64,000 bases of DNA from Ascidiella aspersa (taxonomy: Eukaryota). This document shows positions 4,721-64,000 of this stretch, one piece after another. Where the stretch lies: assembly GCA_963924565.1 (NCBI GenBank), contig OZ004612.1, positions 13,516,001 to 13,580,000 of the forward strand. Direction: 5' to 3'. The translations under genes were made by a program, and so were the position numbers. How positions within the stretch are numbered: position 1 is the stretch's first letter; each line of letters opens with the position of its first letter. The notes beneath the pieces were generated by a model. It saw nothing but the letters and a program-made list of their open reading frames with translations, was not told where the DNA came from and searched no databases.

Positions 4721-7700
4721 ATCTACATTTAATAGTTATTTAAAAAAGGTAGCATTTTATTGGGTACACCGTTCTTATATTGCACGAGAATATTTTGGCA
4801 AACCTACGAGCAAAATACTTATTTATACGTGTACAGGCCAACGTCACCGGAACACGTATCAGTATATAGTATTAACGTTAATATGGTCCAATCGATTCCT
4901 GCAAGCCGTCCTTAAGTACCTATAGTGTGGTCATATAGTTTTAAAGTATTTGCAATATCGGAATTCAATAATCACCGCATGACTACTTAATGTCATATTT
5001 GCCTATATAAATATTAAAGCACTGTTCAAAATGTTTCACAATATTTTATTGAAAAAGTGTATAGGCAGAATTTATATTAAAGACCAAAATAAAAAGTTGA
5101 ATAACTAAGCAACAGCATCCGACGTCTTGTATGATCCCACAAACTCTAAAATTCACGAAGATAAAAGGATTTCACTGCCATACGTAATTTCGCCCACTCG
5201 GTTTACTTTACCTCGATGCCGTAATTTTACGACAGAGCATTATGGGATTCGCTGTTCGAATATTTACACATCGGAACTTGTAACGTCATTACGCGACAAA
5301 AAAGGGTTCACACAAACCCTAGATTTTAAGACAAATATTTGAAAACCGTAACAACTAAAGCAAATATATGAAATTCGGTTTACTGAAACTAAACTTACCA
5401 ACTAATAACCCGAGTTAAAAATGAAAAAATCCATTGTAAGTTATTATTATCATTTTAATAGTACGAAATAAAGCATAAAACTTATAGTTCAACATCATTA
5501 AAATGGTTACTGTACGTTATGTACGTAAGAGTGATTTAATAAGTACTCACACATTCGTCGGATAAGGAATTAAATTCCGAGAAATGGTTTGCGTCAGTTA
5601 TGATGCAATTAAGCCTTGGTATCACTAATAAACAAAATTAGAGGGTTAAGGGGGAATAAATCAATAAGGGGAGATCAGTAGGCTATACAGATTGTATAAC
5701 TATATACTCGACTTGCACACCCTTTAAGTCAGTGTTTGTAACAATTAAGTTTTGGGGTTGTGGTTGTTTTACGTTAACTAAAGGGTTACACAAGCATGGC
5801 CTTCGAACATTCAAGTCACTGGTTCAATTGATTTAAAATCCTTAGGCGGAGGAGGCGTGTGTTGAGTGCCACAAGACAATAATATATAATTTAATTGAAC
5901 TTATACTAAGTTTGTTAAGTTGAAAGTTGGAACTATTTTCTTTGATATGACCTCGGTTAAAATATTACAGTGGATCATACCCTAATGGCACCGTTTGATA
6001 AGAATACTTAGCAATGCTACAATAACAGTTTAATTAAAAACTCGTGAAAATAGGTAGGCTACATGCAATGCGAATAATAAAACAAGAAATAGCTATGCGG
6101 GGCGACCTCTCACTGTTTGCATTGCGACAAAACTTTTGGCCCATTTACGTGGTAGTTACGCAAGTATGTCGGAACAAGTAGATTTGTTTTACAATTCTCC
6201 CAAACCTTCTGCTTGAGGTGCGCTTGCCTACGTTTAAACAATACCTATACAATATGTGATATAAGCCTTGGTTTAAACTTAACCTCAGTACAGTATTTGA
6301 CAGTAATCCAATGATTCGATTGTGTAACAAACGTATCCGGTTTCGTTCCACAATATCAAAAGGTCAAAAAAAAAATTTGTGATCGGTATCAGCTAACTTT
6401 ATGTAAAAGATTCAGTGCTAAAAAAAATACTGAGAAAATACGAACTTAATGTAACCACTATATATACTGTATATACAACACCTTGCTTTCCATTGCAAGT
6501 AAACTAACCAAAAACGTTTAAAATATATATTTTACCGCAAAAGGTTAGCATGGAGTTTGCCATCGTAAAAACTCCATTTATGATGTTTTCAATAGGCCTA
6601 CCTGTCGTTTTAGAAACCCTGTCGTAAGAAAAGAGTAGTTTTGATCATTTGTTGTTCCCTCTTTGTAAATATATTATCCAAGTTACAAGGTTCAACAACA
6701 TGTTAAATAACTTAAACAAATGATTAAGCTTATTTACACGTCTTGAACTTTTTCCACTTATCCAGCAGGCCTATCCATGCAAGCGTGAACAACATCCTTT
6801 TTTAGTATTACTAATGTAAATCTAACTTGAATTACCGAATTACGCGTAAAATTAAACTAAACTCTGAAATAAAACTACCTTTAAATTCACTATTAACTAT
6901 TCGAATAAAATTGTAATTTTTCTAAAAAGAATGTGAATCTCTAAAATACGTATAAATTACACTAAAATTGGCACTTGGCACACGCTGTTTAATTCATTTA
7001 TAAGGCTAAAAGAATTTACTAGTTTTCCAATTATGAAGTCTATGACCACTCTTGTATACGACAACGTTAAGCACTAAGCATAGCTGTAACTCTAGTAACC
7101 TGTGAGTTAATATGCGGCGAAAATCTACAAAGAGTATTATTCTATCACAATGAAAAGAGGCACATTTTAGCAGGGTCGTAATACAAATTATGATTTCTTA
7201 GCTTTTAAGATTGCATTAGTCAAGCAACAACAATCTAAGCATTTATACAATTCAGTAAAAAGGAAACTTTATGAGGTAAAACCTGATGGCTAACTGCTTT
7301 TGCAAATGGTAAGCTTGCATGTTATTTTTACTTTCTTGCTTGTTTGTAATCCTTAAGAAGAAGATTTAAAATATAGTGCTAACCTGATGTAAATAAAGAT
7401 ACTATAGTACCAGTAGCAGTATTGTATCTTTCTAACCACAGGAACTATACTTCAAATGCCCGACGATAACTTACAAATATGCAACACTTGAGTTGTTTTT
7501 CTCGGCTGAAAGTATCTTTGGATCAAATCCTTAACGTTCTTTTTATAAAAAATGATTATATCATAGGCTACACTTGATTAAATAACTCACAGACATAACC
7601 CGCGGACCTCTAATTAAAGAATGCATTTTCGGCAAGTTTAGCCAACCAGCAGGTTTACCGGTGTAATGTGGTGGCATTAGTATCCCATGGCCAGAGCATA

Positions 7701-10000
7701 TTATTCCCAGGGCCAGAGCATTGTCAGTATATTCACCTATTTGTTCAAGGCAAAAGGGTTGGAGAATATACCACGATTTATTGCTGCCATCTAAAAATAT
7801 GTTCAACAAAAACTTCGTCTTGAAAAAGGAACCCTGCATCATTGGCAATTGCTGCAACGATGGCGCTACAGAGCAAGGAATAACGTATACGTCTACCAAA
7901 AGGTCAAGCTTCGATAGAAATTGTATAGACTGCAATTAAATCCCTTTCGCGCACTTGCTAGTAAAGCGATTGGAAGGAACAGATTTACGACAGGTGTATG
8001 AATAATTTTTCCGCGTCCTCATGATTTTTAACAAAAAAAAAATAAATAAAGCAACAAATCAAAATTAAACGGTTCTAAACTACTATTGTAAAAGAAAATA
8101 TTTTGATTTCCTTTATTTGATTTTAGGGGTTTACGGTGGTCCTCGATTGCAAAATTCCTTACCGCTGTTGGCATTCGCAAAGAATAAACTAATCCCAGAC
8201 TGCGCTGCCGAACAGAGCCAAACCCCGTAATCCCGATGTTTATAGGCCGCACGTTATCGCGGTTTGCGGATGCTGTAGGATCGATTGTAATGCGATGCCC
8301 GAACGCATTTTCCGGGGTCGGTTGGCCGCTGCGATTCGCTTTGGGGTAAGGGGATTGCCAGACTTTGTCGGATTTACAGGTCATGTTAACATTCCAATCA
8401 ATACAGACCAAAGCTGCAGCACGAAAACGTACAGATTTGTTCGGGGGACGTTTACTGTATATATACCCGTAAACCAAAGAGCTTAATGGCAGTTGCAGAG
8501 TAAACTAACTGGGAAGCGGTTTGGTGGCCTTGACTGGCAATCAAGGAACCAACTGTCAGTTTTATGTATTTTACGTAAAATTTGTCGCTAGAGCGTTAGA
8601 TCTGTATGCTGAGATTTTTTTGAAACTTGCGAAATAAACTTTTTTTTAAATGTCGGTAATTGAAACAACGCAAGGCGCAGATTTATGGGCCGATCTGAAA
8701 AATTTGCACTACAAAGAAGATGATTTGTTTTTTTTTATATAAATTAACTTTTCGCTTTCTCTCCTGCCATATCTTCACTCAATGGTAAAATTTGTAAGCG
8801 ACATGTTAAAGAAATTGTAAATGACAACTAAAATAAACGGGTTATACCTTGGTTTAGCTAACCCGCTTATCTAATATATCCAAACCATTGTAGCTCTAGA
8901 TTTAGAAAGATATTTTCTATTTGTCAGTTTGAGGTTTAAGCGCGAAAACTGCTCGTCTTGGTTTCACCTGACCTCTGTTAATGCAGGCAGAGTCGCGTTT
9001 CAAAATTGCTACTAGTCACAATAGCGTCAGCAAAGCACCGTGTCCGTTTAACCCCGACACTTGACGGATTGCATGTGTTCGTCACGCTTACTCGCCCAAC
9101 AATCCTGTGGGTGCGAATTAGCCGCAAAGCCTCGATCAGGAGAGCACGTGTGGTTTACAAACCAAATCGCGTTACCTAGATATTGTGGGGGTTACTGTTC
9201 GTTTCAGGTGTAAGAACGATGCAAATATTTTTCTCGAAAGTCGTTTACAAAGTGCAATTGCACCTTGAATTTTTGTCATTGAAAGGAAATGCATGCTAAG
9301 AGTATATAAATGTTTTTTTGTTATAAGTTAGCAGCATGGTTCTGGTTTGCAAATTTAAACAAACTACGCAAAAATAGGACGTTGTTGTTTTTTAAAGCTG
9401 TATGTGACACCGCCCTCGACTAATATGAAAATTTTGTCAGTGTAAAAAACCCAGTATTACAAATATCATACTATTTTTTTGGTAAAAATGTTACTGTTCG
9501 CATTTTCGTCACAAAACCACCGGCGTCATATTTTCCTACGTAGCGACGTAACGTTCGTTACGCAATATTTGATCGGTTTCAGTCGAGCTCGCGCAGATTA
9601 GACGCCACTTCCTCGTATCACCGGCACTGCGAAACCAAAGCCACAAAATTTGCGTTAGTAGCACCCAAAGAAAAGTTCCCGCCTATTCTTAGCGCTTCAC
9701 GGGCTTAAAATGGAACTCCTTTTTCTCCCCGACGCCGATTTTCACGCAGCGCACATTTTTACTGCCGTGCCACACGCGCGACATGCCAGATAGAGAGAAA
9801 AAGAGAGTAGCGCCCCTTTTTTCGTCGCTAACGTCTCGCCTTCGGTGAGTTGCGCTGTCTAGGTAAGGCCGGCAAGGTGAACTGGGAGACCAGAAGCTTT
9901 GCTTGGCCCCATTGTTTTGTTTGCGTTGTAAATTGTACTAATTCTATTTGGAGCGACCGAAGTTTGTAGAAAAGCATTAAGAAAAGAAGGCAACCCGCAC

Positions 10001-10103
10001 TGAGTCACCAAAACATGCAGCTAGTCAAAGTTGACACGTGCCAGTGTCGGGTAGAGTCCCTCATGTATAAGAGGGGTGCGTAGCGGAGGCACAGTCATCA
10101 GTC
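10001..10103 (+). promoter_or_regulatory. Core promoter of the 10185 gene: AP-1 site, E-box, TATA box, Initiator
   Basis: TGAGTCA at 10001-10007, CACGTG at 10035-10040, TATAAGAG at 10066-10073 and an Inr-like TCAGTC at 10098-10103, about 30 nt after the TATA box. A (CAA)n-rich leader at 10121-10143 precedes the ATG. Confidence 0.7.
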
Positions 10104-10184
10104 AGTAGTGTCGCATACGGCAACAACAACAAACAACAACAACGAACTTTTATACGTTTCGTTGCAAACGCAAATACGAGAACC

Positions 10185-11051
10185 ATGTTGCTCGACGTTT
10201 TAGTACTGCTTACTTTATATCGATTCGAAAATGACAACAACAGCAGTTGCAGATTGGGGAGAAGGAAATCGCACAGAATGTCGTTAAGGCTTTGTCAAAT
10301 CGTGCTGTTCTTATTAAGCTGCAGGTTGGTTCAGTCGGCAGCCATACCAGAAGACAGCAAGAGTGGCAGCGGCTCAGGCCTTTCGCTTTCGCCGAACGCC
10401 AAGAAAGCAGGAGCGGAAAGCAGCGGTCTGACCTCGACGCCGCAGGGTGAGGCTGCAAGGTCACGGTCCTTGCTGCGCAGAATCGGCTGCGCGTTCGGCA
10501 ATTGCCGGTCGGCGCGGAAACCGCGTAACGTGCAGTTCACCGCCATGGTGGACCCCAGTAACGATGAGGTCACGGTAATAAATAACACCGAAAAAACAGA
10601 GGCGCTGATCGAGAACCCGCAGACCTTCAAGCAGTGGCGCACCTTGTACCCGAATCGTCACCGCCGCATGGCCAGCGTGCACGCGCTATCCGCCAGTCAC
10701 AACTTCTACTGGACCGTGTGGAAGCGCAACGATACCTTCATGTTCGGCCTGCGCAAGAACGGCAGCGACCGTTATTACTTTCTAATGGCGCTCGCCAACA
10801 GGATTGGTCTGTTCCTGAGCAGGCCCAAGCTCGAGCAGGGCATCGACGAGTCATCCCCAGACAACCGTTACTTTAGACTCGAGTCCCACAAAGCGGCCGG
10901 CAAAGGTCTTTTCCGGCACATAGCAAGCGGCAAGTACCTGGGCATCAGTCATCAAAGCGCTGGCGAGAAACTGGTGCTGACCACCAAAACCAAGGCGTTC
11001 GATTGGGAGGTCAAGTACAGGGTGCACCCTACCGCCAGCCAAAGCCAGTAA
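10185..11051 (+). CDS. Intronless secreted or membrane-anchored precursor with a predicted beta-trefoil (IL-1-like/FGF-fold) cytokine-like C-terminal domain, 288 aa
   Basis: Longest ORF in the window, with GC3-rich codons that contrast with the AT-rich flanks, and ACCATG start context. The second in-frame ATG (10278) begins a typical signal peptide, MSLRLCQIVLFLLSCRLVQSA|AIP. Basic sites RSLLRR, RKPR and RHRR; sequons NNT, NDT and NGS. The C-terminal strands (FMFGLRK..YYFL, NRYFRLE, LFRHIASGKYLGIS, KLVL, FDWEV) resemble IL-1 family strands. The CDS is well supported; the fold is inference. Confidence 0.85.
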   Translation: MLLDVLVLLTLYRFENDNNSSCRLGRRKSHRMSLRLCQIVLFLLSCRLVQSAAIPEDSKSGSGSGLSLSPNAKKAGAESSGLTSTPQGEAARSRSLLRRIGCAFGNCRSARKPRNVQFTAMVDPSNDEVTVINNTEKTEALIENPQTFKQWRTLYPNRHRRMASVHALSASHNFYWTVWKRNDTFMFGLRKNGSDRYYFLMALANRIGLFLSRPKLEQGIDESSPDNRYFRLESHKAAGKGLFRHIASGKYLGISHQSAGEKLVLTTKTKAFDWEVKYRVHPTASQSQ

Positions 11052-12550
11052 ATCAGACAGAAGCGACCTCGTTCGTTTCTTGATATCCCGAACGCGGCAA
11101 AGTCGCGCCAGGATTCAAATGGTGCTAGATCGATTGCGATTACCTCAGACCAAAGGTTGTTTTTTTGCTTGCGGTTTATTTCTGTTCGCGCCTTCTTAAC
11201 TTAAAAAGAGTTTTTATTCGAATATTTATTTTTTCTATGCGCACGTTGTGTACAAGCATTTACCCAGTAACACAGAGTACGATGTACCTATACTTACGCT
11301 ATACATATATATATATTTATTTTTTATATTGCCCCGCTGCATTTGTTGTGTTTTTTTTGCGCCGTTTGGCTCCAGCCACCAAAGTAGTGAAGTCGCATAA
11401 CGTGTAAGGCTCGTCAACGGCCTGGCTACTGTCCCTGGGACTCGAATTGAAATCACATGCGGACGTCATCATTCGCGCCTTGCACGTGATGGCTTTTCGC
11501 GCGCCCGCATCTAAAAGCGTTTAGGAGATTTAATTTGGCCCCCGAAAAAACGCGCAAATTAATTTTGGGCGGCCCGCAATGGCACCGAGCAAAGTGCTTA
11601 ATGTTCTGGCCGACCAACAGCCACAGCATTAGCAGCGCACAGCGGTCAGTCGTGACCATTGTTTCCTCTAATAGCCACAATTGCCTGCCATCTGTGTCAC
11701 ACAGCGGACTTTAATTCCATTTGCCAGTTAGCAGCTGGTCCTGGTACCGAACTGATGTTTTTTACAAGTGTTTTTATATATATTTATTCGATTCCGAAGT
11801 TCGTCACCATTGCCGTATTTCCATTTTCCTGCCTGCCATCACTGTGCCTTCACTGGCTGCTCAAAGCGCCGAAATTGCATCGCAAAACACCTGTAGGTCT
11901 TCCGATTTCACTATCCGTTTTTTTTTTGCGCTTTCAACTTTTACGCTTTCCCGCCCTTGCTGTTCTGTATAGCTGTGCCTTTCAATCCTTATTTGTAAGT
12001 GCCTATTATTATTTATTCATTGAATAATCGTTCTGGGTGTTACGTTGCCCCTTCTATCTGCTGTCTATCGTCTAATGCTGCTGCTTTTACACACCTGTGC
12101 ACTTGAGTGTTGTTGTCGTTTATCTGCCAATGTTGTGATGTTTCCTTATTGCTTTTGAAGAGAAATTCATATTTTACGTATTTACGCAGAAAATTGTTCG
12201 CTATTATTTATTATTAAAAGCTTTATGTCTTCAATCAAGTTTCGAACTTTGCGATGTAAACTTATTGTTGTTGAAAATCGAGCTTAGATATTAGGGAAGA
12301 AGATCTACGCAATTTAGCAAAATGCAAAACAACTTTTATTTATAATTTAGATACAAAAGTAGACACATTTCGTACATAAAGAACCTAATATAAATTAGTG
12401 TTTTGCTGTAAGGTAAATAATACCTATTTAAGTGTCAAACGAAACCAAAGTCAAACGAAATCTAATTCAAGAGTACGAACGTGAAATGTTGAAGTGTATA
12501 AAGCCACTTGCAAATCATGTATTTGGCAATAAAAAGTATCACAAATAAAG
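11052..12550 (+). promoter_or_regulatory. Probable long U-rich 3' UTR with AU-rich elements and poly(A) signals
   Basis: Strong T skew on the + strand. ATTTA pentamers near 11224, 11258, 11315, 11528, 11782, 12011 and 12180. Candidate signals ATTAAA near 12213 and AATAAA near 12528 and 12544. The actual 3' end is not determinable. Confidence 0.5.
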
Positions 12551-15500
12551 CAATTTATAGTTTCTATGATTGTTATCATTGTTCTCTTAGACACCAAATT
12601 CAACGAGCTTCTCGAAATTCAAGTATAGGGTATCGCCAAAACCGGTGGTCTTAATGCTACTTGTTAGTTTGCAAAACATGTCGGTTTTTCAACTTTAAAA
12701 AAAAATTACGTGGCGGCTCATTTGTATTTACTTGTAGGCTGGGGTCGATTCCCTACAAATAAAAAATAACTTGAAAAACGTTTATGGGGTTGACATACTT
12801 AACTTCATTCCATTTACCTATTTGGGTTGTTATTGGAACTACACTACTTTTATTTATAGACCCCTAAACTGTTCCACGGACTCCTGACGCCACTTTCCAA
12901 ACCCAGGGTCATATTACTGTTTTAGTAAAAGTGATTCTTTATTTTTGTTTCTGTTTCCTTACCGTTTTAGGGATTATTCAAGTGCACGTGTTCAGTGCGA
13001 CGGAAATGTATTTTATTTATATCGTGTCAAACTGTTAAAAAAACGTTTTTTTGATTTCGCAAATCTCATATAGTCTATATTGTATGTGAACGCAAACGAT
13101 GCAAAAAATAACAGGGTATACCCCCAGGTGCCGACAATTTTTCACGACAATTCATATCACTTTGACTATTTCGGCGGACGAAAGTCGGCGGGAAGAATAT
13201 ACAGCCGAGATATAATAGGGTTTGTTTCCCGCCATTTGATCAGTATACAACAAATCAAAAATATATAGAACTAACGGATATTTCAATAATATACCCTGCG
13301 GTGAAAACGTGCTGCGTGGTTGGTCTTACCTTTGCAAATACGTCCTGCCGATCGAAACCCTGGCGCGGTTAATTGCAGATTCCAGTTCAGTAGTTCGTTT
13401 TTCAATCATGACTTAACAAAATTTATGTCGTAAAAAAATAATCGTTTTACTGCATCAATGAATTGTGTTGCGCCAGCTGCGTTTTTAAACTCGTGGTCAA
13501 ACATCAAAAAGCGTGTAGTAACAAGTTTTCTATGTTCACGCGGCTTCTTAAAAAATAAATTACATATTTCCAGTATAAGTTTGCTAATATTAGTTTCAGG
13601 GGTGAAGTAGAGTGATAACCTTACCGAAAAAATGAAAATTGCTTGTACCGGAACGCTTTAAATTTTTCTGAGATGACATTACAAAGTTACGTCATTTAGG
13701 GACGCTCAAAGCAAGTAACCTGAAAAAAAAAAAAAAAAAAAAAAACTCTATGTAGTGGCAAAATATGCAACTGGAATCTTAGTTTAAATACAATAAAGTA
13801 GGTTGCGGGATGATTTGGTGAAAAAGGAACATCGCCAAGTACTATACCAGTACCGCATACCTGCAAAAATATTATACCGGAACGCGAACAAAGTTTTTGT
13901 CGAAACTGGACTGGTTTAATTGAAGTAATCAATGGTAGCCGTAAGAGACAAACTAGCAAAAAAGGTTGGGACGTGTAACATGCACGTGGATTGTCCAAAG
14001 AGCTAACAGCATTTACTTTACAACCAATTATAGGTTACGTATTTGATTTTTACAACAATTTTTATGGGATTTGTTGAACGCGCTTTCTAGGAATAACACT
14101 AACAGTCCTTCTGTGATAAAAAACGGTTTCTTCGAATTATTAAAGAAACGTTTAACGTTTTTGAATGAACCCCATGCAACAAAATTAGCAGTAAAATCAC
14201 CGTCTCAACTGCCACAATCTAGCAAACATCGCAACCCAGCCATTTTAACAGTTTGAATGGAATTGCACGAAAAATTAAACAACCCTCAATCGATGCCGCT
14301 CACATGTGCCCTTTAGTCACGATATCGGGCGTTGTGTAACATGTGCGAATCATATAGACAGGGCTCGAAACTTTCGTTCAATGTGCTATGCAACAAGTGT
14401 ACGGGACTACGGGTTACGGTCGCCTTGGTATTTTTTATTAGAGTTTAAGCAGACTGATTTAAATGTCTTCGAAGAGGCTGTCCTGTAAAATGTTCTCACA
14501 TTTGTATGACTGTAAGTTAATTTTTGAGAACAAAAGACTAAGAATGTCAATTCTTAAGCTATGCCGCCCAGGGCATGTAGGCCCTACAATATTCAATAAT
14601 ACAGCGACAAAGTCAACTGAACATTTCTATCCCCGGCCAGAGCACTGGACGTACAGACAACATCGTGATGTATGAGATACTTCCGTCGCTAAATGTTAAT
14701 GCTGCTTTCAAATACTGACCAAATTAGTTCAGTTTTAATGGTGTCGATTCGGAAAAAACCCTTTCCGTTGTCAACGCGTGCAATTTTCTATTGAGTCAAT
14801 ATGCACTCATGGTGAGCCAGCATGAGAACACAATATGATAGGGATTGACATAAGAGTTTAACCGTTTGGCATTTGCAACTCACCGAAATAGCTCTATTCC
14901 AAACGTTTGCGATAAAGCAATTGACGTCAACTGGTTCGCTTCATTTGGACCACTCGCATTTTTAACGATCTTCCGACAAGCGACATCAAATTTTGCGACT
15001 GAAATCTTATTGCTATTTTCCATAATGGGTCGATGGATATTGCGTTATACAGAAATGGCCTGCTCTTATATGCTTGGCACACTTCGTTTGATTTGCTTAC
15101 GACACTGATACGAATTTTTCTGAATGTCACGGGAAGGTGGCAATTTAATTTTTGTTGCATTCGACGTCAGATTGCATTTTTAGGTAACATCGTGTCAGCT
15201 GCAATATCTTAATACCGTCTATCTATGACGTAGACTATACGGGTAGATGTAAAGTTGAAAAGCAAAACCTACCATAGCATTGTATAGCGCCCACATGTTA
15301 TATCGAAACATAGTTTTGCAGTTTAAAAACTCGTTTGCCCATTCGTTCTGTTGTGACCAAGTCAATTTAAAACGACTTTAGTCCTCGTCAAGTCATTTGA
15401 CTTCCAAAAACACTTATAGAGTTATTTAACGTTTTCCATTCTGAATAACATTTTCAGAAAATACTAGAACCGAAAGAAATAGCAAGTAAATAATGGATTT

Positions 15501-44627: not shown

Positions 44628-45207
44628 TTATTCCGGACGCTTTTGTGACCAGAAACACGTCGTTTTGTTCGTCAGTTCTTTCAGCATCGTTGTAACTTCG
44701 TCGGACATGAAGTCTCGAATGTTCTTCGACTTCTTGCCAGAGTAACCGCTCGTGTGCGTCGCCACATGGCCTTCGGGCTTGATAACCATTTGGGCTGGCA
44801 TTCCCATGTGCTCGCGCAGCACTCCGGTAACCCAGACGTCGTCCATCGGCAACGGTTTGTACCCTTTGGAAATGACCCACAACTGGTTGATGACGCTAAC
44901 CGACGTGGTGTACATGGCCCCTAGGCACGAGCGCGGCCACACTTGCCACCGGTAGTCTTTTTCCGACACGAAGTACTTGCTGTTTACGTTTCTTTCCGGC
45001 GTGAATGGTTGCACGATTCTGTACATGCACAGAAGCGGGAACTCGGGCCACTTCTTCTCGGCGGCGGCCTTTAGAAAGTACGTCAAAATCTTGTGCATTT
45101 CAGCCAGGTTGATGAGCACATCGTCGTCGGCCGTCGTGTAGAAGTCGTCGGGTAACAGGTTTTCAGCCGCCCACTGCATTCCCGCCAATGTCTTGGAGAC
45201 AATGTTC
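44628..45207 (-). CDS. GT31 beta-1,3-galactosyltransferase-like gene, last exon (catalytic core)
   Basis: Acceptor GTGTGCAG|G. The splice rebuilds DTYRNIVSKT (the DTYxNLxxKT motif). Also DxD motif ADDDV, SKYFVS..Y, WPRSCLGAMY and MDDVWVTG. Joined exons 86+185+226+580 = 1077 nt = 358 aa plus stop. Confidence 0.93.
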
Positions 45208-45674
45208 CTGCACACGGCGAATCAATGTTCACACAGTATTCTCAAAACAATGGAAAAGAGATTTACCTAACTAAAATCGAGCAAAGCCCCCCTCACTTAC
45301 TTGCATTGGTTATATTTTCCCCAAGCCAAATCAGAAAACATTGTAGAAAAGTCTAAAAATATTAGATCCGGATGTATCGGCGGTGATCCGATATTAAATT
45401 TGTGCCATCTCAGTCATAGTATAGGAATAAAAAAGAACGATGTTTCGTTGGAAGTAAATTTATCAACCAAACACTCAGTTAACGATTGAGACCAAAATTT
45501 TTTTTAGCTTAATCTGTAAAAAAGCCATTTTACCAATTATTCAAAATATCGGACGTTTCTACCCACGTGTTCGCAAGAAATGGTTGCAAAAATAGTTCAA
45601 GAAGCTGCAACAAAGGTATTGAGAAGGAGACAAATACATTTTCTTTCAATTTTAAATAGATAGCAGTTGCATTA

Positions 45675-46095
45675 GGACTCCAGCCATAAGACCGAAAAAA
45701 GAACAACATCGACGTCGGAAATAAAACACAATTCGGAATTATACCAAAATAGAACTAATACCTATAATAGTCTTAAACCGTCTAAATCGGTTCTAAACCC
45801 GTTGGAATAAGACATAAATGGCCACTTAGGTTTTTTTACCTAACCCCAAACCCCAACATCACCAAGTCCCCTAATAGTTTCAACCCATTTTCTAATCCCT
45901 CCCATTACCCACCAACAGCCCAAACAGGGCCAAAAATCCGGTGACAAAACAATCTAGGGAGTCCAATTGCGTCGACACCAAAACGGCCGATGCCAATGGC
46001 CCCGATCGTCCCATACCCCCTCCGGTCCTCCCTACACTTTTAGGCGCCATTTAGGATTTATTCCGATTGAGACGGTTAAGTTCTTATTCTGTCGT
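45675..46095. mobile_element. Related element of the CGGAATAA-arm family in the last GT31 intron
   Basis: Starts CCAGCCATAAGACCGAAAAAAGAACAACATCGACGTCGGAAATAAAACACA, similar to 55140-55190. Internal inverted segments ~45778-45825 and ~46045-46074 surround a C-rich TAACCCC/TAATCCC core. Confidence 0.5.
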
Positions 46096-46491
46096 GGATA
46101 TAATTGGACATTTGACTTCATTGTTTCGTTGTTCTTAATACTATGGTTTTATAATTTTTTTGCTTCAGGAATATAGTGATGCTTTTTAGGTCTTATTGTG
46201 TGTTCACATATAAAAGTTTTGCATCACTTTTAATAAGCACATGAAAGACAAAACATTTATTAGAAAAAAAGATATAATTATCCTGTAACAATTAAAGCGT
46301 GAAACTTTAGTTTCCTCTTTTATACAGTTTTAGTATCGTGTGCCTTATTTACATTGATGATGGAGGTGTGGGTAACTGCCACAACTTTCAAAAGGGAAAA
46401 TAAATTAATGACATAACTTAGATGTAAAACGTTTGTGTGACTTATCATAACTTTGTTTTCTATAGAAGAAATGTGGAATCAACATTACCAC

Positions 46492-46717
46492 CTGTAAGTA
46501 TCCGGTCCATCGTATTGTAAAATATCTTCATATCTTCGTGTTTCCTCGGCCAGAAGCATTCCGTTTTTTGCACTATTCGGCTTTCCAACGACGAACAACG
46601 TCTTAAGGAGGCCGTCTTCTAAGTAGCTCAGAGACCCCCACGCCCGGCGAATAAACTCTCGCCTGTGAAAGTTGCCGACGCTGGATTTCACGAAAATCAC
46701 CATTCGCCATTTGATGT
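46492..46717 (-). CDS. GT31 beta-1,3-galactosyltransferase-like gene, exon 3
   Basis: Acceptor CCTGCAG|. Encodes IKWRMVIFVKSSVGNFHRREFIRRAWG...TLFVVG...EETRRYEDILQYDGPDTY, carrying the GT31 RxxIRxTWG and ExxxYxDIL motifs. Donor AG|GTGGTA in phase 2. Confidence 0.9.
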
Positions 46718-46788
46718 CTGCAGGCGGAAGTATTTATTTAAAAATTGATATATGAATGAAAGGGCCTGTGTTGTCAAAGATTCTAGGT

Positions 46789-47292
46789 CAGGGGCCGGCA
46801 ACCTACGGCCCGCGTGTGAAAATCATCCGGCCGAGAGCTCATTTTCAAAGGATACACGGTCATGCGTCATATTTTTTTAAATATTTTAACCTTACGAATA
46901 ATTTGGTGTCAATTTTTCTTTTGAAGGAATCTTCTCATACCAAAGGGCATTGCGCATAAAAAAACTGGTGGAAGCTATTCCTAGAATGGAACTCTCTAAA
47001 ATGAAAGTTTTTTTTACAACCTAATCTGTATACTCTTTTCTCGGATGAATAACTAATATGTACATATTTAGTTTTGTGAGTGCGCAATGCGTTTCACAAT
47101 TTAAACCAAACAAACGCATTTTTTTTCGCGCTTCGAGAGTTGCTACCTTTTTGTTTTAAATTAGACTTATTTTAATTGCATAAACATTTAGGTCCGAACC
47201 TTATTACGAGCGCTTAATAGCCACATGTTTCTATAACAAAATTGTTAGTGGAAATTTAATACGGCCCGCCAAAAACTTGCTATGTTTGGTTT
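46789..47292. mobile_element. hAT/Charlie-type MITE in the GT31 intron, right end degraded
   Basis: Left end CAGGGGCCGGCAACCTACGGCCCGCG and subterminal CGGCCCGC near 47261. Flanks TTCTAGGT / GGCTAGGT resemble a decayed TSD. Confidence 0.6.
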
Positions 47293-47632
47293 GGCTAGGT
47301 TAAACTAACCCTAATGACAGTATTCTATTTGAATAAGGAACTGACGATATAGGCGAAATATATAATCCTTTAAAAAATGTCTGTTCCTATTTTTACTCAC
47401 CTTTTTAATTTTTTGCTAAAAATGCATTCACACAACTATACAGTTGGTAAATAACATAGTCTCCAACTTTAGAAATTAAAACCAAACTTTATAGCTGATC
47501 GTTAACAATGTATTGAGAACCAGCGAATAATAACCACTGTTTTAAGTCAAATATTATAAATTTTCGAGAGTAAAACAAGTTATGTTTTAGCTTTATAAAG
47601 GTGTACGTCTACTGAGAAAGATATATCTGTAC

Positions 47633-47817
47633 CTTTGTTAGTTAAACAAGATGCGTTCCCAATTTTATCAAACCCTAGCGACGGCTCAATAAGATATACC
47701 GCAATGTTTGACGTCGGGCTGGTGGCTTTCACATTTATGTTTGACAAACCCGTCGTTGTGAACATTGCTGCCTGACACAGCGGGGACTTCCAAACCTGTC
47801 TCACCCTTGATGAATTT
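47633..47817 (-). CDS. GT31 beta-1,3-galactosyltransferase-like gene, exon 2 (stem region)
   Basis: Acceptor TTTGTTTACAG|, open frame NSSRVRQVWK...YLIEPSLGFDKIGNASCLTNK, and donor AAAG|GTACAG in phase 1, matching the next exon. Confidence 0.75.
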
Positions 47818-48439
47818 CTGTAAACAAAGGGATAATATATGCGTTGCGTTAGCCACGATGCTTAGGTAACTCGAAAAGTGTGCTTTATGGCCTGGTAAGG
47901 TGACCAATATACGCCTAAAAACAGTATTGTAAAGAAGTCCTCAAAAATAAAAAGCTTTAGCCCCAGACAAGTCTTTTGTGAAATAACTGACGTCTAAGTA
48001 CAGTTTTTCAAACAAATAACCAGTCATGTCCCAGTTTAAGTCATCAGTTGCCCAAGCCAAGTTTTAGTCAGTCATCACTGGTCAACACAAAATTGCCGGC
48101 TATGACTTAAAAAACTGATTGAGAGTAACTTTGGGGCGCTGATGTCAAATATGTAATTATTTTTTGTCTATCACGTCAGGATTTTAAAATAAGTCACATC
48201 CTCTAAAAAGAAAAATTAAACTTTTTGGTCTAAAAATGTAAACACATTTTCCATCCTACTAGACAACTATACCTATAGTTGATGACATATCTGTAAGTTG
48301 ATGAGCGAATAGGTCTATTCACAAATACAATGTATGTATTTAAGTTAAAATAACACTCAAATGAAAGACGGAAACACTAAATCAGTCACAAAAATTCACA
48401 GACGAACAAAATTTATTTTCAATGATTTTTTGTTGTTTA

Positions 48440-49800
48440 TGATGCTTTTTAAATATATCTTTTCAAACTCCAGCAATAGTCTGCCATCATGTGACAAGCC
48501 TGCTACCCTTGGTAGCGCTCTTCCATTGTTTTTAAATGTCCCGGTGACAACTTTTTTCCTGCTCCTCGACAACGCTGCCAAAGTTTTCGGGAAGTAATGC
48601 TCACATTGCAGCCAATAGCTTAAAAGCTGGAGAGAAACTCTTGTAACAGATCTTTGTAATGGTCAGTTTTCTTGTATCCAATAAGTTTGTAATAACTTTA
48701 ACAAAAGCTTTCGAAACTCTAGCTTCCTTTGAAGACATAGATGACACTAAATTTAAGTCTTTTAGTAAATGTCGAATTTGAGGCCAATTGAATATTCCAG
48801 CTTTTAGTTTTTCTTAAGTTGACCCATGAACCTTTAAGCAGACACATTTAAAGCATTCGCGATGAAAATTGAGCTTTAACATATTTCTTCATGATCCCAA
48901 GTTTGTTATGCCAAGGCGGAAAAATAATCTTTTCTGCTGTCACCAGTAGTTCATGGATGATATGCGGTAAAACTATTTGTGTCAAGTGCAATGTTGCTGC
49001 TTGAATCCCAGTAGCAAAAGAAAATCCAAGTAGCAAAAAAAGCAGGAATACTTCGTGTATCCAGATTGTTGCCGAAGTAAAAATGTCACCATTTTCAAGT
49101 CGACACAGATTTGCCAACCATATTGCTCATATTTTATTTTGTTCAAAGTATGCTTAATGTTTTCAATTTTTATTTTTTATTTTAGACTTAGAGTAACTGA
49201 GTGCCCAATAGGAAGGGAGCCAAATCGGTTGCCATTTTGAAGTAACGCATACTGCGTTTTTGAGCTGTCTATGAAACTGTGCTTTTAGCTGTCGATAAAA
49301 GCCTCAATTCCTCAGAATGGTATCATTGCAATAAACCAATACATCGTATGAAATAAAGTATCATAAAAGCGTTTATTCTTTCTTTCTGTAAAATGTTACG
49401 CTGGCCTCAAGACGTTTTTCTGGTAAGCAACAATTCTGCAGACAGTTGAGAGAAATCCCGATCTCATGATACGAGCTGAATAAACAACCAAGTTGCCTGA
49501 AGCTTGAAAGTCTACATTTTCGTGTTCGTCTTGTGATAAATCTGACTAGGAGGTTGTGAATCAATTTGTGGCAGATGGATAAAAATAGGAAATGAAACTT
49601 GGTCACTATGAGCAATAGGTAAGGTAGCCTACCATAGGTATTTTGAATAGTAGCTGCGTCCTTTCCCTTCGATCCAACATCTTCAATTCGAATGCAAGAA
49701 ACCGTGTGACCTTATGCCAGTAAAATGCTAACTTAGTTGGAATGAATGGTAGGCTACGCACGTGCGAAAATCTGTCAAGATTGCATTACAATTTGAAGTT
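48440..49800 (-). pseudogene. Decayed DNA-transposon transposase (probably CMC/Chapaev-3 type) in intron 1 of the GT31 gene
   Basis: Frameshifted, stop-containing pieces in the expected order: PIAHSDQVSFP, FIDSS, LLQNGNRFGSLPIGHSV, KIKYEQYGWQICVDLKMVTFLLRQQSGYTKYSCFF, IIFPPWHNKLGIMKKYVKA, EKLKAGIFNWPQIRHLLKD, IGCNVSI, PENFGSVVEEQEKSCHRDI, MEERYQG*...MMADYCWSLK. These match the recalled PPLHIKLGLMKQFVKA / EHGERFHQDI / ADYCW family. The superfamily name is from memory and the boundaries are approximate. Confidence 0.8.
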
Positions 49801-50660
49801 GAACAGTTCCAAAGTGTGTCCTGTTTTCCAAATTGTTTAGGGAGTCTCTTTTTCGGCTTTGGTATGAAAACTGAAAACCATTGGTTTGAAAACTCTAAAC
49901 CCTAATAGTTGACTTTGTTAAAACTTCATTCTTGAAAATGACTTTTGGTATTTGGACGTAACATTCTTTTAAAACAGTTCAAAATAGCAAGCAAATATCT
50001 TAAATTTTCACCTGGATAATTGCCTTTGGCCAAAATACCTGCCTTGGTGTACAATCTTTTGTGTTAATTCTACTTATTAAACATTTCTTAAATATACTAA
50101 AAAAAATCTGGTAACACCGCGTCAAACCTGACATTGCATTCTGGTTGCGGAGCATAGCGCTGATGCGCTTTTCTTTCTTGTTGTTAAATGTGAAAGTGTA
50201 ATTGGTCAAGGGGTACTTCATTAAGAACGCAATTAAAAACTAGCCTGGATCAATTGAATAAAAGACGCATCCGTACACCAGAATTATTTTGAACCGTTGT
50301 CTTTTGTACATTTGCAAACCATAAAAACAGCGAATTTTGTTTTTCGATTTCTTGTATATATTATTGTTATTCGGTCCACGTATAAAAAACGTTAGGATTC
50401 GCTATATAGCGTCCCCAACTAAAATACGTTTGATATGCATATGTCAAGGTCACGGTCAAACTGTGTTGAACACACAACATTTAAACTGTTTTATCATTTT
50501 TACACAGAATTGTTAAACTTACCGAGAGCGTTAGCTCTGTAAAGCAAAATTTTTTAACAAGTGTAGGCTGAAAAAAGTCGGTTATTCACTTTACTGCACC
50601 GGTATAATACATGATTGAACATTTTCTTGTTTAATGTAAACAAACGAAACGTTTGCTTAC

Positions 50661-50746
50661 TTGTTAGCATGGAGTATCCATCCGATGGTAAAAAGCATTG
50701 ACATAACCGCCGTGAAAGCGATAAGCATTTTTTTGGGCCTATACAT
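50661..50746 (-). CDS. GT31 beta-1,3-galactosyltransferase-like gene, first coding exon (type II signal anchor)
   Basis: ACCATG then MYRPKKMLIAFTAVMSMLFTIGWILHAN: a short basic tail plus a transmembrane helix. Ends in phase 2 at AA|GTAAGC, which is phase-compatible with the exon at 47817. Confidence 0.7.
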
Positions 50747-50841
50747 GGTTATTCAGATCCAAATTTAACTTGGCGTTATAAACAACATTCCTATAATTTC
50801 CATGTTCTGCAAAAAAATACCAACATGCAGAAGGTTTAACT

Positions 50842-51789
50842 CAGGGTTTCTCAACCGTGGCCCACGGCCCCCCTGGGGGGCCACGGAGCGGTCATTGGGG
50901 GGCCACAGGCATAACTCTCTAGCTAAACATTACGAAAACCAAAGTGTCACTATTTTTAAAATCTACCAGAACTTGATTTTGTGTTTTTTATTATGACTGT
51001 AAACCTTTCTTGTAACGTTTTGTAACACGTGCTTTGACCTGTCAGTTTCGGGATGTTTAAAAGTGGAATATTAGATCATTTTTAATCGTTTTATCGCGGA
51101 AAGTTACGCCTAATTGGTCGTTCGCGTGTGGCAAGTTTGGTTAAAGGCCTGTCGCAGTGGCGAAACAATTACTGTGCTGCTTTATACATAGCCATGCAGT
51201 GCGGCGTCAGCGTTTTTTCAGGCCGGCAATTATTACTTACCGTCTGCCGATACCCTTTTGCCTAATCATCAAGTGTCCGATAAATGCTGTTAGGCGTGCA
51301 AGTAGTGTGCAATGCCAGGTGCAACGGTTTCGCAATTTCTTTTAAGAGCGTTCAGTTGCAAAAGAAACATTCCATCGTAAAACGCCTAAAGTACGCTACA
51401 GGGTTATTCAAATATTCAAGGTCATTTTTAGGCCAACATTAAAATAGGCTAATAGTAACGCGTTAATCAAAGGAAAATCGAGAAATCTTCTCGACGAATG
51501 AAGTGACATCGCTTGGCTCACTACAAAACAGAGCCGAATATAAAAAATAACCAGGTAGCGTCGAAGAACAAGATTTGTAATGACTAACTAATTTAATTTA
51601 AATTAAAATTGTACAATTTTTAAAAGTAATTGCATTTACTCGTTGATTAATGGCTGTATTTGTTATTAACGTGTAGAAGTAAAACAATAAATACGTTCAA
51701 TACAATGCTTGGTATTTTTAAGCAGGGGGGCACGAGGGTCGAGATCCTTTCAAATGGGGCCACGAAGCTTAAAAGGTTGAGAACCACTG
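50842..51789. mobile_element. hAT-type non-autonomous element just upstream of the GT31 first coding exon
   Basis: Left end CAGGGTTTCTCAACC, right end GGTTGAGAACCACTG, GGGGCCAC subterminal repeats at both ends, and flanks GTTTAACT / GTTTAGGT. The right part recurs in each tandem copy. Confidence 0.75.
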
Positions 51790-54700
51790 GTTTAGGTGAT
51801 AAACGTATGAAGCGCATCTTCGTGATCAGGTATATTATTGCTAACCAACTGGATAACGATTGTCTGCTAACTTCAACTGCTAAATTCAAGATTCTGAGTT
51901 TAGAAGGGTGACATATTGAAACTTTTTAGCTGCTTGCCTCCTTTGACATGTAAAATAATCCTTCTACGAGAGAATCTAACGAAGCTGATTTACAAACTGA
52001 CTTTGGTTGTTTATTTTAGGTCGCATAATAAAAAAATACGTTTAAATGTACATTTCATCCGCACATATAGAAAGTCTGTTCGCTGCTTATAGATATTTGT
52101 CTAATATAAATCTGCTCGTAAATGACGAAGAATGCATTGCACAAAGCGGTCACGCAATTTCCTGGACTCAAGGAAATGCACCACAGATGGCAACATTTCA
52201 AACCGCTAGTTAATGCAAGTTGTGAGCACAGTTCTACTAAGGCTAGTTAAATAAAATACACTTTGCATAATTCTATAACGGAAGCCGTGCTTCGATTGGC
52301 TCATCAGCCTTTCAACCGCGTCACAGTGCGACGATGGTGCAGTAAGAGAAATTGCACTTTTGCTGAATAAATTTCTTTACAATGTTCTTCCATAATCACA
52401 CCAAAGAAAGTGCTTTATGTTGCCACTGTTCTTGAAATGCATAAAAGCTGATAAAATCAGCAGGGTATAGTCGTTTACACTTTTCTTTTACAAATTTAAC
52501 TCCAATGGTGAAGGCCGCTAAATCTATACCTGTCTTTTTTACTTCTTTAACTCTCGACTGAGTCACCTCGCTCAATTGATGTTTTTTGCTGAGTATACGG
52601 AATATTGACAGTTTAATCTCAATTCAGTCGATAACGTAATGCGTTGATTCGAACTGCTACATTAATGCCAAGCACAGTAAAATAGCATAAAGTACAATAA
52701 TTTGCAAATCACGGAGACCGTTAGCTTTTGGTATTTGTCACACATCAGTGGACACCGGTCATGATGTGCATCAGGACGTCATATAATCAACGCTGTGTAG
52801 TGTAGTGCTACCTTTTGTGGTGCTACCTCAGTCCTTCACTTGTTTGCATTAAACGCATTTGTTTGCTTCTGAATTAAAATACTGTAATTAACAGAAGCAA
52901 ATGATTAAATGGTACAAATATATCCTATGAAAATGCATCGTCGTTTATATACAAAAAACTCGTTTAAACTGATATTGATGGCGATAATCAACCGTTGTTA
53001 TTTTTGTGAAAATAGTATGGAAATTAAAGTTCACTAACCAGCCAGCCTTGTTTTTTAATTATGTAATAAGGACACTTCAGTTAATATACAAGAGCTTATA
53101 GCAGGAACCTGTTTGGATATAAAGAAATTTCCTCAAGGGAGCTTACAGTCCCGAAAATATAAAAACGATTCGCGCGAAGCGCCAACAAATTTGCTATTAC
53201 GTGTTTTATAAACGGAAAAAAATAGAGTTAGGAAAGCAGCCGCGGCTGCGTGCAGAATTTCCATTCAAATCATGCTAAGACATGATAGTTTGGATATATT
53301 TGCAAGAAAGATTCTTTGATAAAAAGAGCCACATGGTGTTACTAAAAGTACTATTGGTTCCTGACCAAACAACAACAGCAACAAAACACGCTAATACCGA
53401 CAAATCGAAAATGACGTAACAGTACCAAATCGATGCGTCCAGCGACATTCGCTGAACAAATTAAGTGATTTATATAATTAATCAATTATTGATTTATAAT
53501 AATTACCCTGAATAATGTGTTTATTTTATATGATAGCCTGATTGATTGACCACATCATACTTGGTGGTATTGCTACTATCTGGCGACGTTTGCTGTGCAA
53601 TTTTTAAATCTCTACTTCAAATTCTTCCTCCTAATCCCAACCCTTTCACTAACCATTCCTCCGACTTTTTCAGCAAGACTGACTCCCGATCTTTCTCCAA
53701 AATAGAGCTCTAATCCCTAATAAGCATGTCAATACGGAGGTAGGTATCATTTTAAAAGTTTCGAATAACTCTTTACTAATTTTCCAACATGATGAGTATC
53801 GGTAAATATATAATCTCGAAACATTTCTTATTAATCTCCATCATGTGGAAAGCTTACTACAACGTCTACAATAAGACATTTTAAACTGTGCGCACATTTT
53901 TGCGCACAGTGTGCAAAACAACTCCACGTCCCCTAGCTGTTAAAATAGCGGTACAGCAACGGAGCCGTTCAAACTAGGGCGTTCAAACGCTTTTTTTTTC
54001 TAGACACTTTTTCTATACACTAAAACTTTATGACGTCATAGTTGTTCTTAGTAAATCGGTTGAAACGAATGTAGGTCCAAAACGTTATATTTAAAATAAA
54101 TAAGCAACTTTTTTCCAGACTATTAAAGTTCAACACCTGTTTCGTCAAATCTGTACTTTTTAGTGTTGTTAATTACATTTGGTTTGTATGTTGTATTTAA
54201 CAACGTTTTAACAAATTATTTAACCACGCTATTGATATTGGTGCAACGCAGGGGGCATACAAGGGGCAGTGGCCATGTTTAATATATAGCTCGTTCACGA
54301 AAAATAAAAACAGCTTTTCTTGCTTTCAGTCATTATGGTTGGTTTATGAAATTCATTAAAAAAAAACAGTATTGTTTTATTCATAACAACCAAACCTATC
54401 AATGTTTGACATTTTAGTGACCATGGTTTTAAAAACTTGCTGTGTTGTGGCCTGCGACCGAATAATTCGCGTACCTGGCCGTATGCAAGCAAGTAAGCAC
54501 AAAATAAAACTAACAAACCGAAAAATTAAAAACTTTGCAGGCCGTATGTTGTGCAGGCCCACTGCAGACATCAGAAATTCCAAATGTTTTGCAATACACT
54601 GCTTTTCTGTTCTAGGAACCTTTTTATTTTCTGATGTCATGTCGCCGTGTCTAACCACTTCATAATGTAACGGAGACACTTTTGCAAATGAACGTCCGAT

Positions 54701-62667: not shown

Positions 62668-64000
62668 CAGGGGTTCTTAACCTTTTTTGTTTGTTTTACC
62701 CTTTTAACAAAGATGAATATCAGATTTGCCCCCCAATATATAACGTAGTGCTCATCTAAAAAACGAAATTAACACATTTTATTAGGTATAATCATTGCGA
62801 CGGCCACCCTTTCTTTTTAGAACGAGTTTCGTTTTAGAACGAGAACATTCCAGTTTGGTCTAGGTTTTTTCATTTCAGACTGGACAGTTTTGACTCAAAA
62901 AACGCCAGTTTTTGTTCATAATAATTGGATGAGGATTTGTTAGGTGTTGTTTTAAAGGAGCAGGTTTCATTGGTACTGTTTAAAAATGTTTCCATGCTCA
63001 AAACACACTGAGGGACTTAAAAAACATTATACGATATGTAAATCCAAAATTCAAATATTTCTTCTGGTACTTTCCTTTCTTTTGGAACATGCCATTTTTA
63101 AGTTTAAATTATTTGTTACTTTTACACAATAATCAAAGTATTCTTTCGAATAGCAAAATCTGCCTGAATCCGAATAGTGAAAACAAACGATTCTGGTTGC
63201 ACATCAATTGTAAAAATTAAACTAAGTACAAAACTTAGTAAATCGAAAATCGGTTTGTTTGTATGTTATAAAAAGATAAATATATTTCGCTATAAAGCAT
63301 CATCAGTATCTTAATTCGAATGAATTCACAAAAAAACAAAAAACTTTTTTCGGTTTACTAAGTTTTGTACTTAGTTTAATCTTTTACACAATATATATTA
63401 ATCAGTCAATGAGTTATTTTACCACTGAAACGCCTTAATCATTTGGCTAAAAAGATCAACAATAAACTAACTTGGCCAGTTAAGTCGTACCCAGTGAGAA
63501 AAAATAGGCAATCACATCCATAACCAGAACTGAAATTTCAAAAGCTGTACTAAACCTTACAGTTATCGCTACTAAATTAATAAAGCACTTGAAACCCTTA
63601 ATAAAACACTGCACAAAAATTAAACTTAGTTCACACGTCTGCTCGCAGACACGTTACCACAATCCATGCCGTGACTGCCGAATAAGCTGATGAATTCAAA
63701 CAGCAAATGACGTAACCATAAAGTAACTAAGAGATAAGGATATTGCCAATTAAAAAATCATTAATAATAATTAGCGAAGTACAACGTTACCGGCTCTAGA
63801 CGACAAAAAATGAATAGGCAATACTAGGCTAGTTTTGAATTAGCAGTTAATCTGAACTAGGAAAAAAGTTACCAATACTTACAGCTGGCAAAATTTTTCT
63901 GTCCCGTCAGATGTTGTGGATATTATGAATGATAGTTAATTTACTCCCTAAAATGAAGAAATTTACCCCCAGGGGTAGAGTTACCACAGGTTAAGAAAGG
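62668..64000. mobile_element. ~1.33-kb non-autonomous hAT element inserted in tandem copy 3 (right end at the window edge)
   Basis: Left end CAGGGGTTCTTAACCT; the window ends with AGGTTAAGAAAGG. TTTACCCC-type subterminal motifs at both ends. The site is empty in copies 1 and 2 (GATAGTTTGGA|TATATT). Confidence 0.85.
63209..63388. mobile_element. Nested 180-bp MITE with TGT..ACA termini and a 4-bp TSD (Ginger-like)
   Basis: ~41-bp TIR: TGTAAAAATTAAACTAAGTACAAAACTTAGTAAATCGAAAA versus the reverse complement of ~63347-63388. TSD CAAT at 63205-63208 and 63389-63392. Confidence 0.8.

Follow-up and report, generated by a model that had tools for sequence, protein, structure and literature searches.

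A predicted beta-trefoil family in the ascidian Ascidiella aspersa with a likely secreted and convertase-processed branch, a possible offshoot of invertebrate IL-1

Tunicates are the sister group of the vertebrates. IL-1-like activity has been reported from tunicates since 1989 without a gene (accessible text of PMC9020223). A structure-based survey, which started from PDZ-domain proteins, described the family IL-1anc across Eumetazoa (Fontenla-Iglesias et al., 2026, PMC13736523, cited throughout from the accessible parts of the article and its Table S2). By this account, IL-1anc is marked by a PDZ domain in most but not all members, by [FL]ES in strand 9, by conserved introns and by synteny; the linkage varies between clades. 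The trefoil is split into 3-5 exons, and two central introns in it are conserved; no IL-1anc is reported in Ciona, Botryllus or Styela. A variable N-terminus is followed by the C-terminal trefoil and lineage-specific expansion is found, especially for the crustacean SparIL-1.2 and PclaIL-1.2 and the lamprey PmarIL-1.1. Leaders are reported for IL-1.1 of lamprey and hagfish (57 residues in PmarIL-1.1, a rare leader-bearing and PDZ-less member) and for crab SparIL-1.2, the sole case outside jawless fish; the accessible main text does not contain furin, convertase, palmitoyl or myristoyl. Invertebrate IL-1s with a leader thus have precedents, which a preliminary description of the locus presented here had not taken into account.

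Among the IL-1 family proteins, IL-18 and IL-33 are leaderless and are cut by caspases or other proteases. IL-1Ra is not known to have a pro-region or a convertase site, and the intracellular exon of IL1RN splices into the signal-peptide region. By means of alternative first exons this one gene produces a secreted and a leaderless form (accessible text of PMC4090809). Mytilectin-type trefoils (Mitsuba-1, SeviL, SaroL-1) consist of symmetric repeats with a sugar-site motif and have no pro-region. Ricin-B-type trefoils carry a Q-x-W motif, and some endocrine FGFs are secreted with a convertase site.

The locus was found in a window of 64,000 nucleotides of Ascidiella aspersa (contig OZ004612.1, positions 13,516,001 to 13,580,000 of the forward strand). 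The ORF listing showed a frame of 288 residues at 10185-11051 (+); of all 2-kb bins of the window, the one that holds it has the highest GC content. The preliminary description had proposed a real gene, and the frame is indeed transcribed and conserved, with RNA depth on the + strand, seven relatives outside the genome and orthologous loci. Its reading of the translation was also correct: RKPR at residues 111-114 is followed by 174 residues, the domain is free of cysteine (the only five of the protein, residues 22, 37, 46, 102 and 107, all precede it) and the three N-glycosylation sequons N133, N182 and N192 are all in the mature part, with two further ones, N18 and N19, in the leader. No notable repeats were found at 5,000-14,500. 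NF-kappaB-like sites occur 4 times in the window against 1.8 expected, with 0 within 6 kb of the first ATG (ATG1). The surroundings are gene-poor, as the top-ranked ORFs scanned gave no Pfam match at 11052-44600 and 46800-64000. A galactosyltransferase gene is represented by two or more exons at 44628-46733 (-) (PF01762, E 2.6e-11 and 1.5e-9), and a multi-exon Cys-rich gene with ephrin-receptor-like/ELAPOR-type repeats is located just upstream of the window (L013/L014, C6:13,496,001-13,516,000, -).

The precursor begins with a two-part leader of residues 1-51 (10185-10337, +), in which hydropathy shows two hydrophobic stretches around a basic linker; the cleavage after residue 51 was placed by eye, and a second ATG is found at 10278. 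The pro-region of residues 52-114 (10338-10526, +) is Ser/Gly-rich and contains the Cys pair 102/107, which is conserved together with the preceding basic stretch in the relatives P0001 and P0002. It ends with RKPR (10515-10526, +), a predicted proprotein-convertase site from the conservation of R-x-x-R in the clade. The predicted mature chain, residues 115-288 (10527-11051, +), has its trefoil core at about residues 130-279, as seen with AlphaFold2 and the fold searches.

P0001 had been called too short: in its loci L116 and L118 the frame continues for 56 codons further upstream to a Met, and shows the hydrophobic-basic-hydrophobic layout and no second Met. Since L116 and L118 start at the equivalent Met with the same layout, ATG1 and the long leader are conserved. 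The leader that the preliminary description had pointed out is thus kept from ATG1 in the orthologous locus, while in P0002 the conservation begins at the second hydrophobic stretch. The metagenome records L116-L119 represent two orthologue versions, 73-74% identical, one of which has R-Q-E-R for R-Q-K-R at the basic site. Hydrophobic leaders were observed in P0002, P0003, P0005 and P0007, and a weaker one in P0006. An R-x-x-R no more than 60 residues before the domain is present in five of the seven proteins of the secreted clade and in none of the 11 others, 2 of which are nearly without an N-terminal region. The sequon N182 is retained in P0001, P0002 and P0007; the overall sequon counts do not cleanly split the groups. 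The conservation of leader and basic site makes secretion and cleavage at RKPR likely, and the secretion and convertase reading put forward earlier is well supported by it.

A phmmer search of 1.84 billion representatives gave 7 relatives at E <= 0.001 with 27-35% identity, one of them from Clavelina lepadiformis. The expectation that the protein would be invisible to BLAST is therefore borne out with respect to IL-1, but not for its own family. The search for orthologues and paralogues suggested in the preliminary description was productive, since 10 paralogues in the genome joined the 7 outside proteins. Genome searches and profile scans of stretches placed four paralogues on contig C6 (14.055, 14.061, 14.075 and 14.085 Mb), five on C4 (3.806-3.817 and 7.305 Mb) and one, with a frame ending after strand 8, on C9. 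With this gene the genome has at least 11 family members. A variable N-terminus precedes the C-terminal trefoil, the genes form tandem clusters, and 10 of the 11 are leaderless as judged by eye. Clustered cysteines are present before the domain in five of the 10 paralogues. Eight genes have no intron in the trefoil, and in two paralogues it is interrupted once, by a phase-0 intron before strand 7. When the 18 domains were placed in a tree, the eight short-loop members grouped together with a support of 100/100, and P0004 grouped with two of the C6 genes, all sharing a conserved Cys cluster, with 84/74; the 7 rows around this gene, at 83/89, are not well supported as a group. Pfam had no family for the ORF, the first 8 relatives or the six paralogues scanned. 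Word-index protein searches found nothing beyond P0006 and nothing among proteins of 523-2000 residues, which is weak evidence against PDZ fusions. Leaderless paralogues (L011, L052, L057, L059, L060) show acidic, Asp-rich N-terminal stretches and Cys clusters, which may contain caspase and acylation sites. Directly downstream of a C6 paralogue (C6 ~14.051 Mb), a 624-codon open frame without a Pfam match is located at L010:5687-7558 (-), with an iodothyronine deiodinase exon beyond it.

A full-text literature search, with few subscription papers in reach, gave no paper on the family or on a tunicate IL-1 gene, and the accessible parts of PMC9020223, PMC11087794, PMC7347617, PMC12816324 and bioRxiv 2024.08.30.610304 mention no such gene and no tunicate Ig-TIR receptor. 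An origin by horizontal transfer was considered and dropped as unsupported; trefoil, ricin, lectin, fascin and interleukin are not mentioned in the accessible text of PMC13390645. The genes thus form an expanded family without a name or prior annotation, with predicted trefoil products and a conserved secreted branch.

The C-terminal 174 residues were modelled by AlphaFold2 with an 11-sequence alignment as a beta-trefoil (pLDDT 83.4, pTM 0.79). As a prediction, the beta-trefoil fold of the preliminary description is upheld by this model and by the fold searches. Foldseek placed IL-1beta at the head of the list (E 1e-4), with MIR, designed and lectin trefoils scoring nearly as well. After re-alignment, IL-18 was on top (Z 15.0, rmsd 2.7, 135 residues aligned), followed by an Entamoeba lectin (14.9), Mitsuba-1 (14.7) and IL-38 and IL-33 (13.6). 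A wide search listed lectins first (14.7), with IL-33 at 13.6, IL-1alpha at 13.5 and IL-1Ra at 13.1. Altogether, Z values of 13-15 were obtained to IL-18, IL-33, IL-38, IL-1alpha, IL-1beta and IL-1Ra. IL-18 and IL-33 are the best structural match, yet at 10-11% identity, and IL-1beta aligns across the whole domain at 11-13%. As the Z differences are under 1, the model ranks IL-1-family chains and lectins as ties, and the predicted fold alone names no family. The rows with at least 130 aligned residues at an rmsd of at most 2.8, cut-offs picked after viewing the tables, were all IL-1-family chains in both tables; this larger coverage at low rmsd fits the long loop between strands 7 and 8. A second AlphaFold model, of a minimal, distant paralogue, had IL-33 first and IL-1Ra third (Z 8.6 and 8.4, tied), a ranking of little weight because its pLDDT is only 54. 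For P0007 the quality of the Atlas model was too low to build on (pLDDT 0.39). The Atlas neighbours are bacterial and fungal trefoils, including ricin-B-like clusters, and a viral structure library returned generic trefoils only.

The comparison with IL-1anc was read by eye from the rows of Table S2 of PMC13736523, where cells over 400 characters are incomplete. The gene carries a strand 8-10 signature at 10860-10931 (+), D-x-R-[FY]-F, 14 residues and then H-x-x-S-G, which was defined with the family alignment and motif count and by eye against these rows. In the family, D-x-R-[FYL]-F after the long strand 7-8 loop is present in 10 of 18 rows; these are all the long-loop rows, and none of the 8 short-loop rows has it. 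The strict D-x-R-[FY]-F before strand 9 is found in 10 of the 23 readable IL-1anc rows (Table S2 part 2, 24 rows). Among crustacean IL-1anc, seven of nine readable rows have I-x-H instead of [FL]ES, always 14 residues past the strand-8 Phe, and His is at this distance in six of the ten long-loop family rows (in P0005 by alignment). SparIL-1.2 and PclaIL-1.2 combine D-x-R-F-F at strand 8 with I-x-H at the same spacing, as part of the family here does. SparIL-1.2 also shares with this gene a leader, the absence of a PDZ domain and a basic site, R-x-K-R, before the trefoil. The strand loop of amphioxus IL-1anc resembles that of P0004, and the accessible amphioxus and sea-star rows begin with Cys-rich ends. 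The variable N-terminus, the C-terminal trefoil and the expansion within one lineage are likewise common to both groups.

Other marks of IL-1anc were not observed. [FL]ES at strand 9 is absent in 17 of the 17 family rows that reach it. No N-terminal PDZ domain was matched by Pfam in the protein encoded here, nor in any scanned paralogue or relative, the upstream exons of the paralogues being unmapped. Unlike the IL-1anc trefoil with its introns, that of this gene is on a single exon, and the two paralogues with an intron have only the phase-0 one before strand 7. Of the 18 rows, 17 have Trp at strand 4 and 15 have it at strand 12, positions at which the IL-1anc rows read show Phe. Around three loci, the top-ranked ORFs that were scanned included no member of the GCC2, ESD, TRAF3, EIF2A or IL-1R families, so no IL-1anc neighbour genes were seen there; an ESD-like match was located on C3, a contig apart from all family loci. 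The Pfam IL1 model (PF00340) had 0 candidates genome-wide, and its positive control was also silent. PDB sequence searches with the single protein gave chance matches only and no IL-1, and the family profile gave no IL-1 in the PDB at E <= 10; HMMER likewise missed the invertebrate IL-1anc in PMC13736523. A circular permutation relative to IL-1 was raised by L-E-S...P-G-like letters at strands 5-6 in three relatives and was rejected, since a cyclic shift would not give the order of the repeats. Of the preliminary description, the predicted trefoil of a non-vertebrate is therefore upheld, whereas the IL-1 identity is tentative: IL-18 or IL-1beta tops some fold searches, but lectins tie and [FL]ES, PDZ and conserved introns are absent. 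Among the readings considered, we favour descent from IL-1anc, at somewhat short of an even chance, with several of the defining features missing.

Alternatively, the family might descend from mytilectins or ricin-B proteins and comprise tunicate lectins or defence proteins, both secreted and cytosolic; the secreted one would be kept inactive by its pro-region until convertase cleavage. We consider this unlikely. Lectin Z scores tie in the re-alignment (14.9, 14.7) or lead in the wide search, the Trp pattern at strands 4 and 12 is ricin-B-like or lectin-like in sequence, ricin-B-like clusters are among the Atlas neighbours and the trefoils are mostly intronless. With the family profile, only mytilectin-type chains were found in the PDB at E < 0.05 (Mitsuba-1 at E 1.7e-4 from three weak repeats, SaroL-1 at 0.012), ahead of RyR and FGF9. 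The mytilectin-type trefoils are thus the best sequence-profile match; they align in structure at a Z of 14.7 and share the hairpin I-x-H-x-x-S-G-K-Y. The profile match, however, covers only the generic third repeat, which is counted three times on the symmetric lectins, whereas the three repeats of the family are very unequal. The link between strands 8 and 9 is shorter in the mytilectins and their spacing there requires a two-residue gap. Their sugar-site motif His-Pro-x-Gly-Gly is absent in 18 of 18 family rows, the Gln of Q-x-W is mostly absent, and no Pfam lectin family was found in any member scanned.

It is distinctly unlikely that the genes are an independent tunicate family of signalling or matrix trefoils, with a convergent IL-1-like loop and motif and a receptor unrelated to IL-1R. 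Only seven outside relatives among 1.84 billion representatives would suit such an origin, as would the missing IL-1anc intron pattern, synteny, PDZ and [FL]ES, and the I-x-H-x-x-[ST]-G hairpin is a generic trefoil repeat. Against it, traits like those of IL-1anc occur together: the loop, the motif, the spacing, the pro-region architecture, a mostly leaderless family and Cys-rich N-termini. An Ig-TIR receptor was also not found among the ORFs scanned. The TIR model PF13676 had 29 matches in the genome; 10-20 kb upstream of 22 loci were examined and the best-scoring ORFs scanned (113 + 28). In this partial search the upstream ORFs gave LRR-TIR, Death-TIR and SEFIR architectures and no Ig domain, and PF18452 gave nothing over the cut-off.

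The receptor search also revealed other gene clusters. Five tandem TIR genes, an apparent expansion, lie at C4:7,860,304-7,918,727 (L065-L069, L093, L095), ~0.55 Mb from one trefoil paralogue, and two of them with an upstream Death-domain exon look MyD88-like. At C5:6.56-7.56 Mb (L037-L040, L044, L046) four near-identical TIR exons were found; the two checked have LRR ectodomains, which suggests a TLR-like multi-exon cluster. Three single-exon SEFIR genes in tandem, of which two match the IL-17R fibronectin domain, and a fourth apart from them are located at C4:2,371,301-2,381,300 (L110) and C4:13,860,801-13,870,800 (L106). With AGA and AGG read as Gly (table 13), the mitochondrial COX1, CYTB and ATP6 give sound translations, which marks the genome as that of an ascidian tunicate.

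It is very doubtful that the protein is a strongly diverged growth factor of the FGF type with a receptor tyrosine kinase as its target, in spite of the secreted basic trefoil with its convertase site and the weak FGF9 profile match (E 0.74). Ascidian FGFs, too, are secreted trefoil ligands in the same genome, but they are PF00167-positive: this model gave 19 exon matches in about 8 genes, and the gene described here is not among them. In the accessible literature, ascidians are reported with a set FGF catalogue. The profile matched the genome's own FGFs over 32 columns, the third repeat against the second and out of register, with a probability of 42. The core Cys is absent, and there was no FGF among the top 50 of either the re-alignment or the wide search, a ranking that leaves room for FGFs. 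The separation from FGFs, drawn in the preliminary description from the Cys-free domain, is thus supported, for the FGFs of this genome, by the PF00167 search and the out-of-register match.

The expression of the gene was analysed with one stranded RNA run (X5), of which about 6% was aligned to 7500-14500. All listed depth was on the + strand; it climbs over the ORF and the 3' UTR (11052-12180, +, end approximate), where it was 10-19, and falls to about 1 beyond 12,180. Five reads with loose ends at 10318 and four at 7749 shared one consensus, which matched 7278-7307 exactly and once, at a chance expectation of 0. The RNA junctions accordingly connect 7308 to 10319 (5 reads) and 7308 to 7750 (4 reads). 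The gene is therefore not intronless as first described, and a leaderless isoform had been overlooked. The coding end of the upstream first exon is 7286-7308 (+), with the ATG at 7286, an in-frame stop ahead of it at 7277 and a GT donor at 7309; it comprises 7 codons, two of them for Cys, and 2 bases, its 5' boundary being unmapped. No counterpart of this exon was found in the 5.9 kb before the orthologue. The acceptor (10294-10318, +) is within the leader codons and consists of a pyrimidine-rich tract and AG at 10317-10318; an acceptor-like tract with AG is present at the same Ser codon in L116 and L118. Spliced at 10319, the transcript is in frame and encodes 251 residues without a leader and with 4 Cys among the first 9. 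The segment 7750-7902 (+) is likely an optional in-frame exon of 153 nt with both boundaries in phase 2; four junction reads show use of its acceptor, the donor at 7903 is suggested by the open frame and a donor-like site, and among the listed junction reads none joined 7902 to 10319.

For the leader form, a TATA-like element at 10066-10071 (+), recognised in the sequence 119 nt before ATG1, is the candidate proximal promoter, and a TATA box lies 82 nt upstream of the equivalent ATG in L116 and L118. In a further run (X3, kind not on record) contigs were found only within 10023-12129, apart from repeats. One unbroken contig, 10023-11051, spans the acceptor and begins 43 nt upstream of the TATA-like element, as would be expected of a second, proximal start, although starts cannot be read from contigs. 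A high-copy repeat with an A-rich tail was observed at ~13,660-13,800 (contig depth about 2,000 against 118). Because the junction reads skip the leader while the X3 contig keeps it, the gene likely yields both a leader-bearing and a leaderless form. It is scarcely credible that the spliced form alone counts and that the leader is no more than intron sequence in translation: the X5 depth just ahead of the acceptor was 0.44 against five spliced reads and the pyrimidine-rich tract encodes the second hydrophobic stretch, but the open frame, start Met and two-part layout are kept in L116/L118 despite a domain identity of about one-third, P0002, P0003, P0005 and P0007 bear leaders of their own, the basic site is confined to the secreted clade and the unspliced X3 contig crosses the acceptor.

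Taken together, the gene is best explained, with a probability of about 0.45, as a transcribed member of an expanded ascidian trefoil family, likely a divergent PDZ-less offshoot of IL-1anc, with a secreted precursor and a leaderless form. The proximal promoter would drive the leader-bearing form, which would enter the ER by its leader and be glycosylated as a precursor. A furin-type cut at RKPR would then free the 174-residue trefoil, and this may act as an extracellular signal, an agonist or an IL-1Ra-like antagonist, at a putative cell-surface receptor. The spliced form, with its 4 Cys in the first nine residues, would stay cytosolic, possibly held at the membrane by S-acylation, and like the ten leaderless paralogues would exit only by an unconventional route. 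The proposed pair of forms resembles that of IL1RN. The trefoil of IL1RN is multi-exon, and here it is the leaderless form that gains a Cys-rich N-terminus; the likeness is probably convergent.

In conclusion, the gene family and the dual isoforms are new here. The trefoil family is likely secreted and convertase-processed, and the product of this gene likely works as a processed extracellular ligand. We tentatively propose, as an idea somewhat more likely to fail than to hold, that the family is the missing tunicate branch of IL-1: PDZ-less, largely intron-free and of at least 11 genes, one of which would have evolved independently an IL-1Ra-like switch between a convertase-matured secreted form and a lipid-anchored leaderless one. 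The Cys-rich N-termini would then be an unnoticed membrane tether common to other invertebrate IL-1anc. The family supplies named candidates for tunicate IL-1. Should it not be derived from IL-1, what is left is a set of predicted trefoil genes, several in number and so far unannotated, with a conserved secreted branch. If it is derived from IL-1, the gap next to the vertebrates would be filled, and convertase maturation and the switch between secreted and leaderless forms would have arisen outside the vertebrates.
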